Assembly (NCBI GenBank): GCA_036516895.1 | Contig: DATDZD010000016.1 | Location: 1-51,743, forward strand | Source of the DNA: Minisyncoccota bacterium | GTDB taxonomy: Bacteria > Patescibacteriota > Minisyncoccia > Phycocordibacterales > PALSA-1337 | Direction of reading: 5' to 3' | DNA: 51,743 nt | In this document: positions 15,472-38,276 of the stretch, one piece after another | How the letters are laid out: each line of letters opens with the position of its first letter | Numbering within the stretch: the first letter of the stretch is position 1 | Notes under the pieces: model-generated | The model's input: the letters and a program-made list of their open reading frames with translations, nothing else | What the model was told of the DNA's origin: nothing | The model's database searches: none | Made by a program: the position numbers and the translations under genes

Positions 15472-15573
15472 AATCGGCTCGCCTACTTGCGCTCGGAAGC
15501 TCTTTTATTTGTTCTCCGCCTGCTGGCGGATAAAAATAAAAGACTTCTTCACCGCAGGCTCGCACGATTTTAC
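15467..15573. repeat. about 106-nt imperfect palindromic element filling the frr-rseP spacer
   Basis: The outer stem is GTAAAATCG (15468-76) with CGATTTTAC (15565-73). The middle stem is GAAGCTCTTTTATTT (15497-15511) with AAATAAAAGACTTC (15535-48). The GC core hairpin is TCCGCC-TGCT-GGCGGA (15515-30). Confidence 0.6.
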
Positions 15574-23831: not shown

Positions 23832-24332
23832 ATGGCACGCACAAAATTAGAAAAAAAGGAGATTATAAAGAAAGTTGAGGATATTGTAAACTCTGCCGAG
23901 TCGGTTGTTTTTGTCAATTTTCACGGACTTAAAGTGGGGGACACCATGAAGGTTCGTAGACAGTTGAGAAGCGAGGATGTGGAATTTTTTGTGGCAAAGA
24001 AAACGCTTGCTCGCAAAGCCCTTGAAAGTGAAAATTTGGGCAAGAAAATTGAAAGCAATCTGCCGGAATTGAGAGGAGAATTGGGTCTTGCGTATAGCAA
24101 AGACCTCACTGCTCCAGCTCGCGAAATATATGGATTTCAAAAAAAATTCAAAGACAGCATCTCTATACTAGGAGGCATATTTGAGTCAAAATATATGACA
24201 AAAGAAGAGATGTTGGTCATTGCTCTTATTCCTAAGCAAAAGACTCTTCAGGCCATGTTTGTCAATGTCATCAACTCGCCTATTCAGGGCTTTGTCATGG
24301 TTTTGAGTGAAATAGGCAAGAAAAAAGTCTAG
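23832..24332 (+). CDS. rplJ: 50S ribosomal protein L10
   Basis: 166 aa with a typical L10 N-terminus (KKEIIKKVEDIVNSAESVVFVNFHGLKVGDTMKVRRQLR). It is followed by rplL. Confidence 0.93.
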   Translation: MARTKLEKKEIIKKVEDIVNSAESVVFVNFHGLKVGDTMKVRRQLRSEDVEFFVAKKTLARKALESENLGKKIESNLPELRGELGLAYSKDLTAPAREIYGFQKKFKDSISILGGIFESKYMTKEEMLVIALIPKQKTLQAMFVNVINSPIQGFVMVLSEIGKKKV

Positions 24333-24448
24333 GGAAAATTGGACAAAATTCTTTCTCTGGACACAAGCTCTTTTTTCTTCGGCAAGCTCAGAAAAAAGAC
24401 TTCTGTCCATCAACGAATTTTGTCTCAATTTTCCGAGCCGATTTTACC
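24333..24448. repeat. about 102-nt palindromic element plus a shared 15-mer in the rplJ-rplL spacer
   Basis: GGAAAATTGGACAAAATTC (24333-51) pairs with GAATTTTGTCTCAATTTTCC (24415-34). TGGACA pairs with TGTCCA. An inner perfect 10-bp stem is TCTTTTTTCT / AGAAAAAAGA. Next comes CGAGCCGATTTTACC (24434-48), the reverse complement of 15467-81. Confidence 0.6.
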
Positions 24449-32811: not shown

Positions 32812-32968
32812 AAGTTTGGAAAGTTGCAAAAAATTATTTTTTTATGAATATTTTAACTATTTCTCTTGCTTTAAATACATTTTGTAGTAATATGATTATT
32901 AGACAGCACCTTTTGTAAGGTGCTTTGACTTTTTGAAAACCACAAACAAAAATCAACGACATAAACCT

Positions 32969-35900
32969 ATGATATATAGAATGTATCGTCAGATTAACAG
33001 TGGCTTGGAATATGGTTTCTATATTGAAACCACAAGCCAGCTGTCAGGGCAATCACTCAAAAAATTAAAATGGCTTATTGCGGAAACATTTGAAGTGGAA
33101 AAAACTAGACCAGGACCTCAATACCAAGGTAGATTTGTGGTTGAGATAGGACCACGATTGTCAATTGAAACCCCATTTTCATCCAATGCTGTGGCAATAG
33201 CGCATAACATGGATATTCCTGAAGTCATTCGCATCGAGCGGACTCATCTGCACATTACAGGTGACTCTGGAAAAGGAAGGGCATGGGCACTACAAAAAAT
33301 TGATATAATGACCGAACAACATTACCCAAATGGGATTGGGGGCTTTGACACCGGCACTGCGCCGGAACCAGTCAAAGTTGTTGACCTTCTCGGTTTTGGA
33401 CAACTTCTTCTCAGGGAAATAAACTCTGAGCTTGGTTTGGGCATGGATGACAATGATATTGAATATTACTACAATCTTTTTGTACACACTCTCAAAAGAA
33501 ATCCGACTGATGTTGAATTGTTCCAGCTAGGCAATGCGAACAGTGAGCACAGCCGGCACTGGTACTTCAAAGGCAAGATGGTCATCGATGGACAGACAAT
33601 AGAAAAGACTTTGATGCAAATCGTCCAATTTCCATTGGTCAATCTCAATAGGCAGAACAGACAGCATACGAGTCTGGTCGCCTTCAAAGACAACGCCGGA
33701 GTAATCAAAGGATTCAGCACACGCCTTATCCTGCCAGTCACTCCGGGCAAACCTTCGGAAATGCGAGTCCTCGATAAGGTGGTCCATATCACTTGTACCG
33801 CAGAGACGCACAACCATCCGACATTCGTCGCGCCCTTCCCCGGTGCCCAAACAGGCGCAGGTGGACGGATACGCGACAACACAGCAGTCGGGCGTGGAGG
33901 CATCGTTGGTATCGGTGTCGCCGGTTACTTTGTCGGAAACCTTTTCATTCCCGGATATCAAATTCCGGGCGAGGTTGTCGGCAGAGACAAGCCATCGAAA
34001 TACGCTTCGCCTCTCTCAATTCTCATTGAAGGCAGCAATGGCGTATCAAGCTATGGCAATCAGTTCGGCGAACCCCTCACACTGGGCTTTACCCGAACTT
34101 TCGGTAAGCTTATCGGAAGCGAATGGCGTGAACCTCGCAAGCCGATACTCTACAGTGGTGGCGTTGGTCATTTATTTGATGGACACATCACCAAAGAGAC
34201 ACCTGAAGTTGGAATGCTCATCGTGCGCATCGGCGGTCATGCCTATCCCATCGGGGTCGGCGGAGGCTCAGCTTCAAGTATGATGCAGGGAGAGAATTCC
34301 GAGTCGCTCGATTGGAACTCCGTTCAGCGCGGAAACGCAGAGATGGAGAATCGTGCGAACCGGGTCATTCGAGCCTGTGTCGAAATGGGAGATAAAAATC
34401 CCATCTCGAGCATTCACGACCAAGGTGCTGGAGGACCATCGAATGTTCTTACTGAACTCCTCGAACCTCTCGGTGGCAAGATTGACATTCGTGGCATCGT
34501 GCTTGGCGACAAGACGATGTCTGTTCTCAAAATCTGGAGCGCCGAATTCCAAGAAGGATATGGACTCCTGATCAGGGTAGAACAGGTCGGGCTTTTCAAG
34601 TCGGTTTGCAAACGCGAGCGCGTCAACTGCGAAGTTCTAGGAGAGATTGACGGCAGTGGAAACATTGTCGTTCTTGATTCTCAAAACGGGACAACGCTCG
34701 TCGAACTGAACCTGGGGCATATTCTTACGAACATGCCCCAGAAGACATTCGAGTCAAACCGGCGGACCGAAAGCTTCAAGCTTTTGGTCTTGCCGAATAT
34801 CACTATCGGCGAAGCAATCCGGACGGTATTTAAACTTCCTAGTGTGGGCTCAAAGGGATTTCTTGTCAACAAGGTAGACCGAAGCGTCACTGGGCTCGTA
34901 GCACAACAGCAATGTTGTGGTATCGCTCAGATTCCGATTGCAAATGTCAGTGTCAATGCGCAGAGCCATTTCGGTCTGACTGGATCCGCTTGCGCTATCG
35001 GAGAAAATCCGATTCGGATGCTCATTGATTCGGAAGCTGGCGCTCGAATGGTTGTGGGAGAATTCCTCACCAATATGGCGTCAGTGGTAATCAGCAACAT
35101 CGGAGACATCCGGTGCCGTGCAAACTGGATGTGGCCTGCAAAACTGCCTCACGAAGGTGCCCTTCTCTATGACGCCACTCAAGCCATGTCAAATTTGATG
35201 ATAGACTTGGGCATCGCAGTTGATGGAGGAAAGGACAGCCTTTCAATGGCTGCGATGGTACAAGGAAATCTAGTAAAAGCTCCTGGAAGTTTGGTGATAT
35301 TTGGATACGCATCCGTGCCTGACATTACGAAAAAGGTTACACCGGATATAAAAAAACCCGGCAAGAGTGTTTTGGCACTCATTGATCTTGGACAAGGTAA
35401 AAATCGCCTTGGCGGTTCTGCTCTGGCTCAAGCGTTCAATCGACTCGGTGACGAAACACCTGATGTTGATGATCCGAAACTCCTCAAGAATGCATTTGAG
35501 GTAATGCAGATTATAATCAACGAAGAACTGATTCTGTCTCTGCATGATCGAAGCGATGGTGGCCTCATAACTGCAGTTGCTGAGATGTGCATGGCGAGCC
35601 GGTGCGGATTCACTCTAAAGGTCACGAGTTGGAATGTGGTGGACCACATGGATGTTATGGATGAGTTATTCGCCGAAGAGCTCGGTTTCATCATGGAACT
35701 TGACCCTCAAAATGAAAAACTAGTTCGAGTTATCTGTGATAGATTTGGCATTCCATTCACATGGATTGGAACAACTGAATCAACTGAAAGGTGTGTCATT
35801 CGTGATGATTACAAAGAAATATTTAGTGTAACTACCAGAGAACTTCGTCTTTGGTGGGAATCAACAAGCTATCATATTGAGAAACTGCAGGTTACCCCCG

Positions 35901-36856
35901 AATGCGCTAAGGTGGAATATTTTGGACATAACTATCGTTTGCTTAATAATATCGATACAGCTCCATCGTATAAGCTCTCATTCATTCCAGCAACAACGCT
36001 CCCGGAAGTTTTGGAAGCACGAGACAAACCTCGCGTTGCAATATTGCGCGAGGAAGGTACGAATGGTGACAGAGAAATGCAAGCTGCATGTCTGGCAGGA
36101 GGTCTTGCTCCATGGGATGTCACAATGAGTGATCTCCTTGAAGGCAGGATCGATCTGGATTATTTTCAGGGTATCATCTTTGCCGGTGGATTCTCCTATA
36201 TGGATGTGTTTGATAGTGCGAAAGGATGGGCAGGAACAATTCTTTTCAATGAAAAGTTGAGAGAGATGTTCGACAAATTCTATTACGCTCGCCGAGATAC
36301 GTTTTCACTCGGTGTGTGTAATGGTTGTCAGCTCGTGGCTCTTCTTGGACTTGTTCCGTTCGTTAGTGATGCGGAGAATCAGGTTTATGGCAGACCAACA
36401 GATCAGTATCAACCAAGGTTTATTCACAACACTTCGGGCAGGTTTGAGTCTCGATGGGTACAGGTGGAGGTTCTCCCAAGCCCATCGGTGCTTCTTGCCG
36501 GGATGGAAGGTTCAAAACTTGGTGTGTGGGTCGCTCATGGTGAAGGGCGCTTAGTGTGCTCTCACAAAAAAGTGGCTGGGAGAATAAAAGAACACAACCT
36601 TGCTCCTTTCGCATTCATTGATCCATCAGGGTGTCGAACAGAGGTGTATCCGTACAACCCAAATGGTTCGCCAGACGGGATTACGGCACTCTGCTCTCCG
36701 GATGGTAGGCATCTTGCAATGATGCCTCATCCAGAACGTTGTTTCCGTTTGTGGCAATGGCCTTGGATGCCAGAGTCTTGGAGAAAGCTCGAGGCTTCAC
36801 CATGGCTTAGAATTTTTCAGAATGCCAGAACATGGTGTTGGGAAAACAGGGCTTAG
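32969..36856 (+). CDS. purL: phosphoribosylformylglycinamidine (FGAM) synthase, single-chain large PurL
   Basis: About 1295 aa comprising an N-terminal domain, duplicated AIR-synthase-like FGAM synthetase domains and a C-terminal class I glutaminase (GVCNGCQL Cys, MMPHPER His). The ATG at 32969 is preferred over the TTG at 32933. G+C is about 52% (line 34081-34140). Confidence 0.93.
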   Translation: MIYRMYRQINSGLEYGFYIETTSQLSGQSLKKLKWLIAETFEVEKTRPGPQYQGRFVVEIGPRLSIETPFSSNAVAIAHNMDIPEVIRIERTHLHITGDSGKGRAWALQKIDIMTEQHYPNGIGGFDTGTAPEPVKVVDLLGFGQLLLREINSELGLGMDDNDIEYYYNLFVHTLKRNPTDVELFQLGNANSEHSRHWYFKGKMVIDGQTIEKTLMQIVQFPLVNLNRQNRQHTSLVAFKDNAGVIKGFSTRLILPVTPGKPSEMRVLDKVVHITCTAETHNHPTFVAPFPGAQTGAGGRIRDNTAVGRGGIVGIGVAGYFVGNLFIPGYQIPGEVVGRDKPSKYASPLSILIEGSNGVSSYGNQFGEPLTLGFTRTFGKLIGSEWREPRKPILYSGGVGHLFDGHITKETPEVGMLIVRIGGHAYPIGVGGGSASSMMQGENSESLDWNSVQRGNAEMENRANRVIRACVEMGDKNPISSIHDQGAGGPSNVLTELLEPLGGKIDIRGIVLGDKTMSVLKIWSAEFQEGYGLLIRVEQVGLFKSVCKRERVNCEVLGEIDGSGNIVVLDSQNGTTLVELNLGHILTNMPQKTFESNRRTESFKLLVLPNITIGEAIRTVFKLPSVGSKGFLVNKVDRSVTGLVAQQQCCGIAQIPIANVSVNAQSHFGLTGSACAIGENPIRMLIDSEAGARMVVGEFLTNMASVVISNIGDIRCRANWMWPAKLPHEGALLYDATQAMSNLMIDLGIAVDGGKDSLSMAAMVQGNLVKAPGSLVIFGYASVPDITKKVTPDIKKPGKSVLALIDLGQGKNRLGGSALAQAFNRLGDETPDVDDPKLLKNAFEVMQIIINEELILSLHDRSDGGLITAVAEMCMASRCGFTLKVTSWNVVDHMDVMDELFAEELGFIMELDPQNEKLVRVICDRFGIPFTWIGTTESTERCVIRDDYKEIFSVTTRELRLWWESTSYHIEKLQVTPECAKVEYFGHNYRLLNNIDTAPSYKLSFIPATTLPEVLEARDKPRVAILREEGTNGDREMQAACLAGGLAPWDVTMSDLLEGRIDLDYFQGIIFAGGFSYMDVFDSAKGWAGTILFNEKLREMFDKFYYARRDTFSLGVCNGCQLVALLGLVPFVSDAENQVYGRPTDQYQPRFIHNTSGRFESRWVQVEVLPSPSVLLAGMEGSKLGVWVAHGEGRLVCSHKKVAGRIKEHNLAPFAFIDPSGCRTEVYPYNPNGSPDGITALCSPDGRHLAMMPHPERCFRLWQWPWMPESWRKLEASPWLRIFQNARTWCWENRA

Positions 36857-36880
36857 GGTAATGTTCCAAAACCAATCCGA

Positions 36881-36911
36881 CCTCTTGCATAGCGACGCAA
36901 GGGGTTTTTTA
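36881..36911 (+). terminator. rho-independent terminator of purL
   Basis: CCTCTTGC (36881-88) pairs with GCAAGGGG (36897-904), followed by TTTTTT. Confidence 0.7.
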
Positions 36912-37013
36912 TTAAAAACTGCTGTGTTGATTTCTTTCAAAATAAATTTATTTCAAATAGACTGGGAGTCGTTTTAGTAAACAAACCCAAGAAGTGATAA
37001 TATAAATTTACAA

Positions 37014-38276
37014 ATGAATATGGCTAGAATTTGGAATAGATATAAACAGACGAATACCTCTCTTGGCAAGAAGGTCTTTATTGGCATGTCCGGAGGAGTG
37101 GATAGCTCTGTTTCCGCTGTATTACTAAAAAAACAAGGATATGATGTGACCGGGGTTTTCATCAAAGTCTGGCAACCTGAATGGCTTGCAAATACTTCTG
37201 TTTGCACTTGGAGAGAAGACCGACTTGACGCCATGAGAGTGGCGGCAAAGATTGATATTCCTTTTATTACTCTTGATTTAGAAAGGGAATATAAGAAAGA
37301 AGTGGTAGACCATATGATAAGCGAATACAGGGTTGGAAGGACACCTAATCCTGATGTGATGTGCAACGCTTATGTGAAATTTGGCGGATTTTTTGATTGG
37401 GCTATGAAACAAGGCGCGGATTTTGTGGCGACGGGGCATTATGCACAGATTGTTAATATTAAAAGCAATGGGGCAGAATTGACTTCTGAAGGAACTCTCG
37501 GAGCCGCGAAGGCGGCGAGAGGGAGCGCGCCGTCAGCAGACGGCGACGCGTGTCCTGAAGAAGTCAATTCTGCCCCATTGCTTGCTATGGGTATTGACTC
37601 AAATAAAGACCAATCATATTTTCTCTGGACATTAAAAAGAGAACAATTGCTACACATTTTATTTCCCGTTGGAAATATTTCAAAACCAGAAGTGAGAAAA
37701 TTGGCAAAAAAATTTGGTTTACCAAATGCGGAAAAAAAAGATAGTCAAGGTCTTTGTTTTATAGGTAAAATAGATGTTAAAGAATTTCTATCTCATTATA
37801 TGCCTGCGAAGAAAGGCAATGTTCTAGATGTAAAAGGGAATATAATCGGCGAACATGACGGTTCTTTCTTTTTTACCATAGGAGAAAGACATGGCTTTAC
37901 TATTACGAAAAAGACTCCGAATGACGAGCCATATTATATTATCTCAAAGGATATAAGAGAAAATACCATAACTGTTTCAAATAAATCCAAGCAAGGTCAT
38001 TTACCAGATGGTCAAAGAGAGGTGAAATTGAAAGATGTTAATTGGATAAGCGGAAAGCCACCAAAAGTTGGGAGAATATTGCAAGCGAGATCAAGATATC
38101 GTGAGCCATTGCAAAAAATAAAAATCATAGATGAAGTGATAAAAACAGTCGTTACTGTTCACAATCATGAATTAACCATACAATTTGAAAGACCGCAATA
38201 TACTCTTTCATCTGGGCAATCTCTAGTCATATATGATGGAGATATTTGTTGGGGGGGAGGGGTAATTGTGATATAA
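37014..38276 (+). CDS. mnmA: tRNA-specific 2-thiouridylase MnmA (carries an in-frame palindromic element at 37463-37583)
   Basis: PP-loop [10 protein letters not shown], the ATGHYA motif, [10 protein letters not shown] and a catalytic Cys context (DSQGLCFIG). Confidence 0.95.
   Translation: [420 protein letters not shown]
37463..37583. repeat. 121-nt GC-cored palindromic element in frame within mnmA
   Basis: A 25-nt perfect inverted repeat (37463-37487 versus 37559-37583) is extended by 4 more base pairs. The core has two hairpins (37495-37521 and 37525-37549). Line 37501-37560 is 73% G+C. Confidence 0.8.

Follow-up and report, generated by a model that had tools for sequence, protein, structure and literature searches.

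A palindromic element within mnmA

The DNA analysed here (the window) comprises positions 1 to 51,743 of contig DATDZD010000016.1 from a Minisyncoccota bacterium (assembly GCA_036516895.1; 51,743 nucleotides, nt). The subject of this work is a GC-rich palindromic element of 121 nt that lies in frame within the mnmA gene of this window, which encodes a tRNA 2-thiouridine synthase and is not strictly essential in every bacterium. The features of the locus, in which P1 is the outer stem and P2 and P3 the two inner hairpins, are as follows:

37014..38276, + strand: mnmA (tRNA 2-thiouridine synthase) open reading frame (ORF), 420 amino acids (aa), host of the element, assigned by Pfam and PDB matches
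37461..37583, + strand: translated insert, codons 150-190, 41 residues in the translation of the mnmA ORF
37463..37583, + strand: whole palindromic element, 121 nt, an inverted repeat that folds on both strands; its G-rich pattern strand is the + strand, which is the mnmA sense strand
37463..37487, + strand: outer 5' arm of P1, 25 nt, perfect, with a sequence particular to this copy and wholly unlike the arms of its nearest relative (locus L001)
37488..37489, + strand: GA of the conserved tandem GA/AG mismatch, with its partner GA at 37557-37558
37490..37493, + strand: inner P1, 4 bp, AGGA, paired with TCCT at 37553-37556 in the pair list of the minimum free energy (MFE) structure
37495..37523, + strand: hairpin A (P2), with a GGA internal loop at 37500-37502 and a GAAG loop at 37508-37511; conservation within the family is highest here
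37525..37549, + strand: hairpin B (P3), with an AGCA loop at 37535-37538 and a bulged A at 37546
37559..37583, + strand: outer 3' arm of P1, 25 nt, exact reverse complement of 37463-37487
37485..37561, + strand: match of covariance model R1 to the family core, 86 bits, E 4e-26
37439..37657, - strand: antisense ORF of 72 aa, which arises from the lack of stops in the palindrome and is not a gene

A first-pass annotation, made from the letters alone, had described an exact 25-nt inverted repeat at this place, followed by a 2-nt mismatch and four more pairs, and both parts of the description were confirmed. The 25-mer AAGCAATGGGGCAGAATTGACTTCT was located at 37463-37487 on the + strand and recurred solely as its exact reverse complement at 37559-37583, with no chance match to the arm in any of 100 shuffles. 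Beyond the 25 perfect pairs, a GA/GA mismatch (37488-89 against 37557-58) is followed by the 4 additional pairs; the full arms measure 31 nt, are 94% complementary and enclose a spacer of 59 nt. The two GC-rich hairpins proposed for the interior were found at 37495-37523 and 37525-37549, where they form a three-way junction with the outer stem (a Y shape) on either strand. When folded as RNA, the + strand reached an MFE of -87.9 kcal/mol (z -11.9) and the - strand -82.5 kcal/mol (z -10.9), and folding with DNA parameters gave -54.7 and -52.5 kcal/mol for the two strands (z about -12). The G+C content of 73% assigned earlier to 37501-37560 was correct (73.3%, and 75% for the 59-nt core), whereas the genomic background of 'about 30%' given with it was too low, as the average was 37.9% for the window and 36.6% for mnmA minus the element.

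The hairpin A pattern TCGSAGNCGCGRMGGCGNCKAGA matched the window once, at the 37495-37523 element only, and an exhaustive search of the window with model R1 (cmsearch with the filters off) returned no second real copy of the family.

Assemblers can be misled by palindromes, and the annotation had named a chimeric join at the palindrome centre as an alternative. However, the element DNA was identical, base for base, in contigs of four samples that had been assembled independently and with different assemblers, and therefore the palindrome is not a chimeric join. In addition, its centre is asymmetric and matches the family model with 86 bits, the ORF is intact, and homologous inserts are present in many other assemblies, which makes an assembly artefact barely conceivable.

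Translation of the insert and its place in MnmA

The identity of the host gene was supported by matches to the Pfam tRNA_Me_trans HUH, PRC-barrel and C-terminal domains (E 3e-73) and to four solved MnmA structures, with E values of 1e-84 to 1e-87 for PDB 2HMA/2DER; the closest homologues of the protein were from Patescibacteria. The stop-free translation of the element within the 420-aa ORF and the antisense ORF at 37439..37657, both noticed in the first pass, were found as described. When the protein was aligned with the solved structures, the alignment broke at query residues 149-189, opposite 7 residues in 2HMA. This leaves about 34-40 extra residues, in agreement with an earlier estimate of 36-39 residues inserted in a variable loop. 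The 121 nt of the element are not divisible by three, and relative to the common loop of 14 aa the gene is 39 codons longer.

The AlphaFold2 model of MnmA was confident for the fold (mean predicted local distance difference test, pLDDT, of 81), with pLDDT values of 27-38 for residues 151-184, and placed the insert at a β-hairpin tip (strands 144-149 and 187-192), from which it projects. According to this model, the insert is a disordered surface excursion of about 40 residues, which answers the surface-loop check proposed in the first pass.

The block could also be thought of as intron-like RNA, an intein or a segment skipped by translational bypass, in which case MnmA would be made without the extra residues. 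Its structure is indeed very stable and compact, and bypass of GC-rich palindromic inserts occurs in some yeast mitochondria. The question was approached with 80 further mnmA loci, gathered through peptide motifs upstream of the loop and hence with no bias to an intact downstream frame. The loops of this sample ranged from 14 to 67 aa, and all 36 long ones were in frame and stop-free, a constraint that would be needless if the segment were removed. This argues that the inserts, as read from the gene sequences, are translated and neither spliced nor bypassed. Moreover, group I and II introns and inteins are all far larger than 121 nt (about 40 aa), no ribozyme or intron family was matched, and both orientations of the element occur. 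Removal of the block is therefore highly improbable.

Presence, orientation and turnover in mnmA orthologues

The annotation had also proposed a presence/absence polymorphism among close orthologues, and this was what the comparison revealed. The loop at the insert site was 14 aa long in 84 of the 120 close orthologues and at least 30 aa (30-114 aa) in 14, all the extra length being confined to the loop after 'TGHYAQ', at the same β-hairpin tip. The element was present in 12-14 of the 120 and absent from about 88%, and filled and empty alleles were interleaved among relatives of 83-96% identity. Distant orthologues were also inspected for a homologous peptide at this position that would owe nothing to a palindrome, and none was shared among them. 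Separately, orthologue P0116 carries at the same loop a Lys/Glu-rich insert of 114 aa that falls outside the two peptide classes described next.

The insert peptides fell into two classes, which correspond to the two strands, sense and antisense, of one DNA element. Thus, the peptide SGHASPSADGALPLAAFAAPRVPSE of the antisense ORF of the window is the mnmA translation itself in the opposite-orientation orthologues P0002, P0037 and P0107. The DNA of nine insert-bearing mnmA genes showed in every case the same Y fold and the conserved core, in the sense orientation in 5 and reverse-complemented in 4, with one reading frame of the element common to all the sense copies and one other frame common to all the antisense copies. 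In the upstream-motif sample, L210 (about 46% identity) was the only distant gene that carried the Y core, in the antisense orientation.

Comparison of closely related genes revealed a turnover. In L133 and L132, which are 90% identical, the 85-nt core was 100% identical but inverted, and the arms differed. The element of L132 was also found, 100% identical, in the diverged gene of L006, where it stands together with a leftover arm of the L133 type. In the L131 gene, 93% identical to the filled L002, the outermost stem is kept together with 9 nt of the core junction, and by this comparison its loop is a deletion remnant of the element. Perfect mini-hairpins of 8-11 bp were present in 4 of 45 short mnmA loops (L171, L201, L170 and L131; loops of 14-18 aa), and these are probably arm-only remnants of decayed elements, as the comparison with L002 supports for L131. 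The idea that empty loops are already palindromic was discarded, the mean longest inverted repeat being 4.84 bp in them and 4.59 bp in control windows.

These alleles bear on a history in which a single ancient insertion in mnmA was inherited vertically, with its core flipped between its own arms and many losses, but with no ongoing mobility. The element does always occupy the same mnmA loop; inversion of the centre and a tendency to deletion are known properties of palindromes, L131 shows a loss by internal deletion, and the arms evolve by compensated changes. Nevertheless, such a history fits poorly, because a flip between the arms leaves the arms unchanged and yet the flipped copies have different arms, both in the pair formed by the window and L001 and in that formed by L133 and L132. 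Nor does it agree with the second element beside the leftover arm of a first one in L006, with the interleaving of filled and empty alleles at 83-96% identity, with the one clean 14-aa loop without footprints in 84 of 120 orthologues, or with the same core subtype at unrelated loci and in other genes. We consider it improbable.

Many other long mnmA loops contained different palindromes, without a match to model R1, either as perfect hairpins (17-24 bp, closed by tiny loops) or as nested or multi-hairpin GC-rich inserts. Examples, all of them in frame, are L144:967-1062, L174:964-1035, L189:765-839 and L183:964-1056, together with the loops of L165, L187, L135, L154, L186 and L207. Judged by these sequences, unrelated palindromes collect at this β-hairpin tip throughout the phylum, which makes it a general hot spot for such DNA.

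A family of Y-shaped elements in Patescibacteria

The hairpin A pattern TCGSAGNCGCGRMGGCGNCKAGA, which occurs once per insert-bearing mnmA locus, was used for a scan of one genome per prokaryotic species and returned at least 120 loci. Among the matches listed, about 85 were complete Y elements, exclusively from Patescibacteria, and about 36 were chance matches of the pattern in GC-rich genomes outside the Candidate Phyla Radiation (CPR), where the rest of the structure was absent. The hosts, which were metagenome-assembled genomes (MAGs), belonged to Paceibacteria, Kaiser-, Taylor-, Zambryskii- and Adlerbacteria, Minisyncoccia and Saccharibacteria, and several MAGs had 3-4 copies on separate contigs among these matches. 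None of the matches listed was in mnmA, all the mnmA cases having come from protein-led searches. The further copies expected in related genomes were counted with model R1, which found 108 in 721 kb of related DNA, including 12 overlooked by the pattern. This suggests a copy number per genome on the order of ten, a rough figure because the loci had been chosen for holding a copy.

In all these copies, a conserved GC-rich two-hairpin core of about 60 nt is enclosed in a long closing stem (median 22 bp, up to 45 bp), nearly perfect and different in sequence in each copy. The total length ranges from 95 to 160 nt, so the 31-nt arms and 121 nt of the window copy are typical. In an alignment of 94 copies, each P3 pair had undergone 24-60 double compensatory changes, and all four Watson-Crick types were represented. 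Across the family, P1 showed changes on both sides in all 10 pairs, and the AG[C/U]A loop of hairpin B and its 3' bulge were conserved. The covariation score of a curated 58-copy alignment was 0.484, compared to 0.146 for shuffles and 0.08-0.18 for slid controls. Between the arms of related copies, 21 of 50 differences were exactly compensated in the partner arm, from which it follows that the pairing of the arms is maintained.

Copies from different places can share the core and nothing else: L065, L069 and L106 have a common 67-nt core, 94-96% identical, within unrelated DNA. A different anatomy was found in subfamily 2b, a unit of about 170 nt with conserved terminal inverted repeats (TAGAGCATGTTTGAAA...TTTCAAACATGCTCTA), sharp borders and unrelated flanks, of which at least 3 copies are present in one MAG, H43-bin093. 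By its sequence, this subfamily has the classic anatomy of a miniature inverted-repeat transposable element (MITE). Its members include L013:2300-2520, L059:4850-5015, L090:5350-5520, L124:640-800, L079, L105 and L044, and they may be flanked by TA/TAG. In another subfamily, many copies stand between direct repeats of CGAG[Y].

Other candidate properties of the family were not sustained. A common terminal motif, AAGAAGG...CCTTCTT, was present at both ends in just 3 of 81 copies. The junction in the window was suggestive of arms copied from the flanking host DNA, but arm-versus-flank scores equalled the permutation control. A search for viral contigs as carriers gave 0 matches. With Rfam 15, no match reached the gathering threshold on the element in the window or in 18 related loci, and permissive Rfam scans returned sub-threshold matches to generic hairpins only, on both strands. 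In the literature searched, no description of the element family was found for CPR/Patescibacteria, and the CPR is not mentioned in a review of prokaryotic MITEs from 2024.

Location of the copies outside mnmA

Most of the family copies were intergenic and often adjoined tRNA or rRNA genes. About 17 of them lay 9-81 nt from a tRNA gene, with their long arms starting directly at the tRNA 3' end, and many were placed exactly between two convergent tRNA genes. At L038:4990-5110, L024:7560-7680 and L100, the palindrome reaches into the last 4-8 nt of both convergent tRNAs (for example GCGCACCA ... TGGTGCGC), an overlap that may be a coincidence or the result of outward growth of the palindrome. 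In Saccharibacteria, copies were found inside arrays of tRNA genes (L040:740-860, L040:1300-1440 and L087), and after each of them the 3' end of the preceding tRNA is found again as a direct repeat (GGCGTACCA; CCGGGGCTACCA), an arrangement that, by analogy, resembles integration sites overlapping tRNA genes. Two copies in opposite orientation occupy L036:695-930 side by side, between the 3' end of the 23S rRNA and the 5S rRNA gene, and at one locus a long-armed copy is located between secY and adk.

Outside mnmA, read-through was limited to recG and fusA, out of about 86 copies (about 2%). In RecG, 54 residues lie between helicase motifs II and III at a place where the Thermotoga protein (1GM5) has 3. 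In the fusA gene (elongation factor EF-G) of one MAG (L018:699-916), the native stop is overrun by the element and about 73 aa are added, which could represent a real C-terminal extension or an error in the MAG. The element was read in frames fwd2 (sense) and rev1 (antisense) in mnmA, fwd0 in recG and rev0 in fusA, and there is therefore no single peptide comparable to the one encoded by the Rickettsia palindromic elements (RPEs). Other cases were rejected: the elements at tpiA and pheS lie upstream of the real starts, and the long stop-free frames at the Kaiserbacteria copies L065, L068, L069 and L106 are spurious, as they have no Pfam match, are of low complexity and are not homologous to each other.

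Folding strand, orientation and a possible role for the host

The strand that folds better was the G-rich pattern strand in 82 of 94 copies, with 99 G·U pairs on this strand against 34 on the opposite one. In parallel, the 2x2 GA/GA (tandem GA/AG) mismatch was present in 33 of the 94 copies, always on the pattern strand and regardless of the direction of the host gene. In contrast, the orientation of the copies was close to random relative to the strand of the flanking gene (40:54) and weakly biased relative to GC skew (34:60), and a link with the replication strand, as in the ssDNA (single-stranded DNA) transposon model, was rejected on the basis of these splits. A fold that is specific to one strand, combined with a near-random orientation, points to selection that acts on the strand of the element itself, in the form of ssDNA or of a transcript of its own, and not on the host message. 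In the antisense mnmA copies, in fact, the favoured folding strand is not the mRNA. These data count against a cis-regulatory role in mnmA, and the strand preference fits recognition by a trans-acting protein.

They are also relevant to the proposal of a structured module that works for the host, such as a site for RNase III or RNA processing, a transcript-end element or a protein-binding platform, and that would have been domesticated rather than be selfish. As a corollary, long hairpins in the mnmA loop would be selected, for instance because mRNA cleavage or stalled ribosomes at the hairpin would limit the synthesis of MnmA. Conserved loops, bulges and junction over heavily covarying stems are the usual signature of functional structured RNA, the copies within a genome have diverged like paralogous genes, and the transcribed spacers where many of them sit (between convergent tRNAs, within tRNA arrays, 23S-5S, secY-adk) would suit such a role. 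The minimal RNase III substrate is about 22 bp long, close to the median arm of 22 bp. Furthermore, the recurrence of unrelated perfect hairpins of 17-24 bp in the mnmA loop of other lineages hints that 'some hairpin here' is selected, and the core shows 0 changes in 85 nt while the gene diverged by 10%. Set against this are the random orientation with respect to host transcription (40:54), the presence of both orientations in mnmA with the favoured strand often antisense to the mRNA, and the lack of the element in about 88% of the close mnmA orthologues. The ordinary hairpin-plus-U terminators of the window genome, the plain MITE anatomy of one subfamily, the decay remnants and the lack of an Rfam match speak in the same direction. 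On balance, a host-functional module, although the strongest competitor of the explanation favoured below, seems rather unlikely.

Comparison with known systems

About half of the RPE copies are in frame in ORFs, where they encode a conserved peptide, and their in-frame insertion is compatible with the fold and function of the protein (PMC10969869). The behaviour reported here is similar, as the first-pass annotation had suggested: dispersed palindromes of about 100-150 bp, in several families, occupy small AT-rich bacterial genomes and enter conserved genes in frame, in this case mnmA, recG and fusA, with the mnmA insert at a disordered surface site. This likeness is one of behaviour, drawn from descriptions rather than from consensus sequences, and does not extend to membership of the RPE families, as the hosts are Patescibacteria and not Rickettsia or other Rickettsiales, and about 2% of the non-mnmA copies are read through compared to nearly half of the RPEs. 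The elements described here also differ in their signature, a conserved two-hairpin centre with arms that vary between copies, in the repeated occupation of one loop in both orientations, and in the lack of a single peptide frame.

With MITEs such as the Neisseria Correia elements, ERIC and BOX/RUP, the family shares small, non-coding, multicopy units bounded by inverted repeats, with unrelated flanks and long hairpins in transcripts. Subfamily 2b, with its conserved terminal repeats and sharp ends, and the candidate short direct repeat of another subfamily reinforce the likeness. In the subfamily of the window, however, the arms pair but vary between copies and the conserved part is internal, and the family corresponds to MITEs in some respects only.

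REP/REPIN and IS200/IS605-derived elements are short, abundant and mostly extragenic. Like the REP/REPIN-RAYT system and the IS200/IS605 derivatives, in which function is tied to one folded hairpin strand, the present family favours one strand (G-rich in 82 of 94). Neither a GTAG-type motif nor a RAYT/TnpA gene was seen, with no search aimed at RAYT/TnpA genes having been made. In addition, ssDNA transposons are strongly oriented with replication, in contrast to the weak 34:60 split found here, and the simple hairpin or hairpin pair of REP/REPIN is replaced by a three-way junction.

The GC clusters or double-hairpin elements of fungal mitochondria are GC-rich and mobile, are found in either orientation and are sometimes in frame (yeast var1). 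The family thus resembles them as GC-rich palindromic elements in AT-rich genomes, in both orientations and sometimes in frame, a resemblance of description and not of sequence. The fungal elements differ in being organellar, much shorter and devoid of a long copy-specific closing stem.

In the inverted terminal repeat of adeno-associated virus, a long stem closes two small GC-rich hairpins in a T or Y of about 125 nt whose centre exists as 'flip' and 'flop'. The analogy is of shape only (a stem, two inner hairpins and two orientations of the centre). The viral repeat is the terminal origin of a linear ssDNA virus, whereas the elements described here are internal to chromosomes, the flipped copies have different arms, and no viral copies were found.

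From all the systems compared, the family is set apart by its conserved three-way-junction centre, its free but paired arms, and the repeated bidirectional occupation of one enzyme loop.

A proposed mobile palindrome tolerated in a permissive loop

The explanation that we favour, with some reserve, is that the element is a non-autonomous mobile palindrome with MITE-like and RPE-like behaviour that is tolerated in a permissive loop. When single-stranded, the core would fold into hairpin A, with its GAAG loop and purine-rich internal loop, and hairpin B, with its AGCA loop and 3' bulge, closed by a long stem whose sequence is unique to the copy and whose pairing is kept. Copies would spread in a transposition-like manner, probably through a trans-acting protein recognising the folded G-rich strand, and accumulate to the order of ten per genome, mostly at 'safe' intergenic spots, especially tRNA 3' ends and rRNA/tRNA spacers. 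In the window lineage, one copy would have landed in the mnmA DNA encoding the β-hairpin tip of MnmA, where the open frames of the GC-rich element together with the permissive loop keep the gene intact. The element would then be transcribed and, on translation, give MnmA a disordered excursion about 40 residues long that the enzyme tolerates rather than needs, and the long mRNA hairpin would likewise be merely tolerated. Copies at the site would turn over as new ones arrive in either orientation, as one replaces another, and as internal deletions leave arm-only mini-hairpins, while the perfect arms would be kept either because the element is under selection or because the hairpin serves as a template for correction.

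Several results weigh against this explanation. At the window copy, no convincing target-site duplication was found, and the collected DNA contained no transposase or other mobilising enzyme, no parent insertion sequence and no autonomous partner with the terminal repeats of subfamily 2b. The invariance of hairpin A is partly a matter of construction, because P2 served as the search pattern. Copies within a genome usually differ in the P1 and P3 stems, which implies that most of them are not recent duplicates and would suit old, conserved and possibly functional elements equally well. In the same way, the 0 differences in the 85-nt core compared to about 10% in the flanking gene could reflect a function at the host level and not a recent transfer. 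Unique arms around a conserved centre, as found in most subfamilies, are the reverse of the usual MITE pattern, and the many unrelated palindromes in a single loop exceed what random insertion and tolerance alone would give.

A bolder proposal is that the core with its tandem G·A pairs is a functional fold specific to Patescibacteria, either a mobility module defined by its centre and accepting any paired arms or a structured RNA or ssDNA used by the cell, and that the MnmA tip is targeted or under selection for a hairpin. We hold this to be possible but doubtful.

Other features of the window

Elsewhere in the window, further features outside the family were noted. An AT-rich imperfect hairpin at 24321-24445 (34-nt arms, 74% complementary, 57-nt spacer; RNA MFE -45.9, z -5.3) fills an unusually long spacer between rplJ and rplL. 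It was considered as a family member and rejected: its geometry is nearly the same, yet it gave no match in the exhaustive model search. Just upstream of mnmA, at 32933-36856, a purL-like ORF of 1307 aa has 45-51% G+C compared to about 37% for the rest of the window, and by this composition it may have been acquired horizontally.

Two weak model matches, at 15515-15530 (E about 1) and 36868-36954, were dismissed as ordinary terminator-like hairpins. Both are GC hairpins flanked by A/T tracts. The first has an AGCA/TGCT loop as in hairpin B, but its model match is not significant; the second, at 36879-36912, is a hairpin plus U-tract that follows purL. Structures of this kind indicate that the window genome uses canonical intrinsic terminators.

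Significance for Patescibacteria

The genomes of Patescibacteria (CPR) are tiny and gene-dense, and few repeats are usually expected in them. A family of phylum-wide palindromes, some of them read through in conserved genes, would be the second independent example, after Rickettsia, of selfish protein remodelling in reduced genomes, and a conserved centre within free but always paired arms lies outside ordinary transposon models. For annotation, the family calls for caution, as an odd GC-rich 'loop' or antisense ORF in a CPR protein is a DNA element; it also supplies practical markers for strain typing. The MnmA loop, with its many different palindromes in both orientations, amounts to a natural experiment on the amount of foreign sequence that is compatible with an enzyme, and allows the idea of coding-region hairpins as selected regulators to be tested. 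If the core were indeed a functional fold, the loop would represent a convergent control of a tRNA-modification enzyme at the level of nucleic acids.

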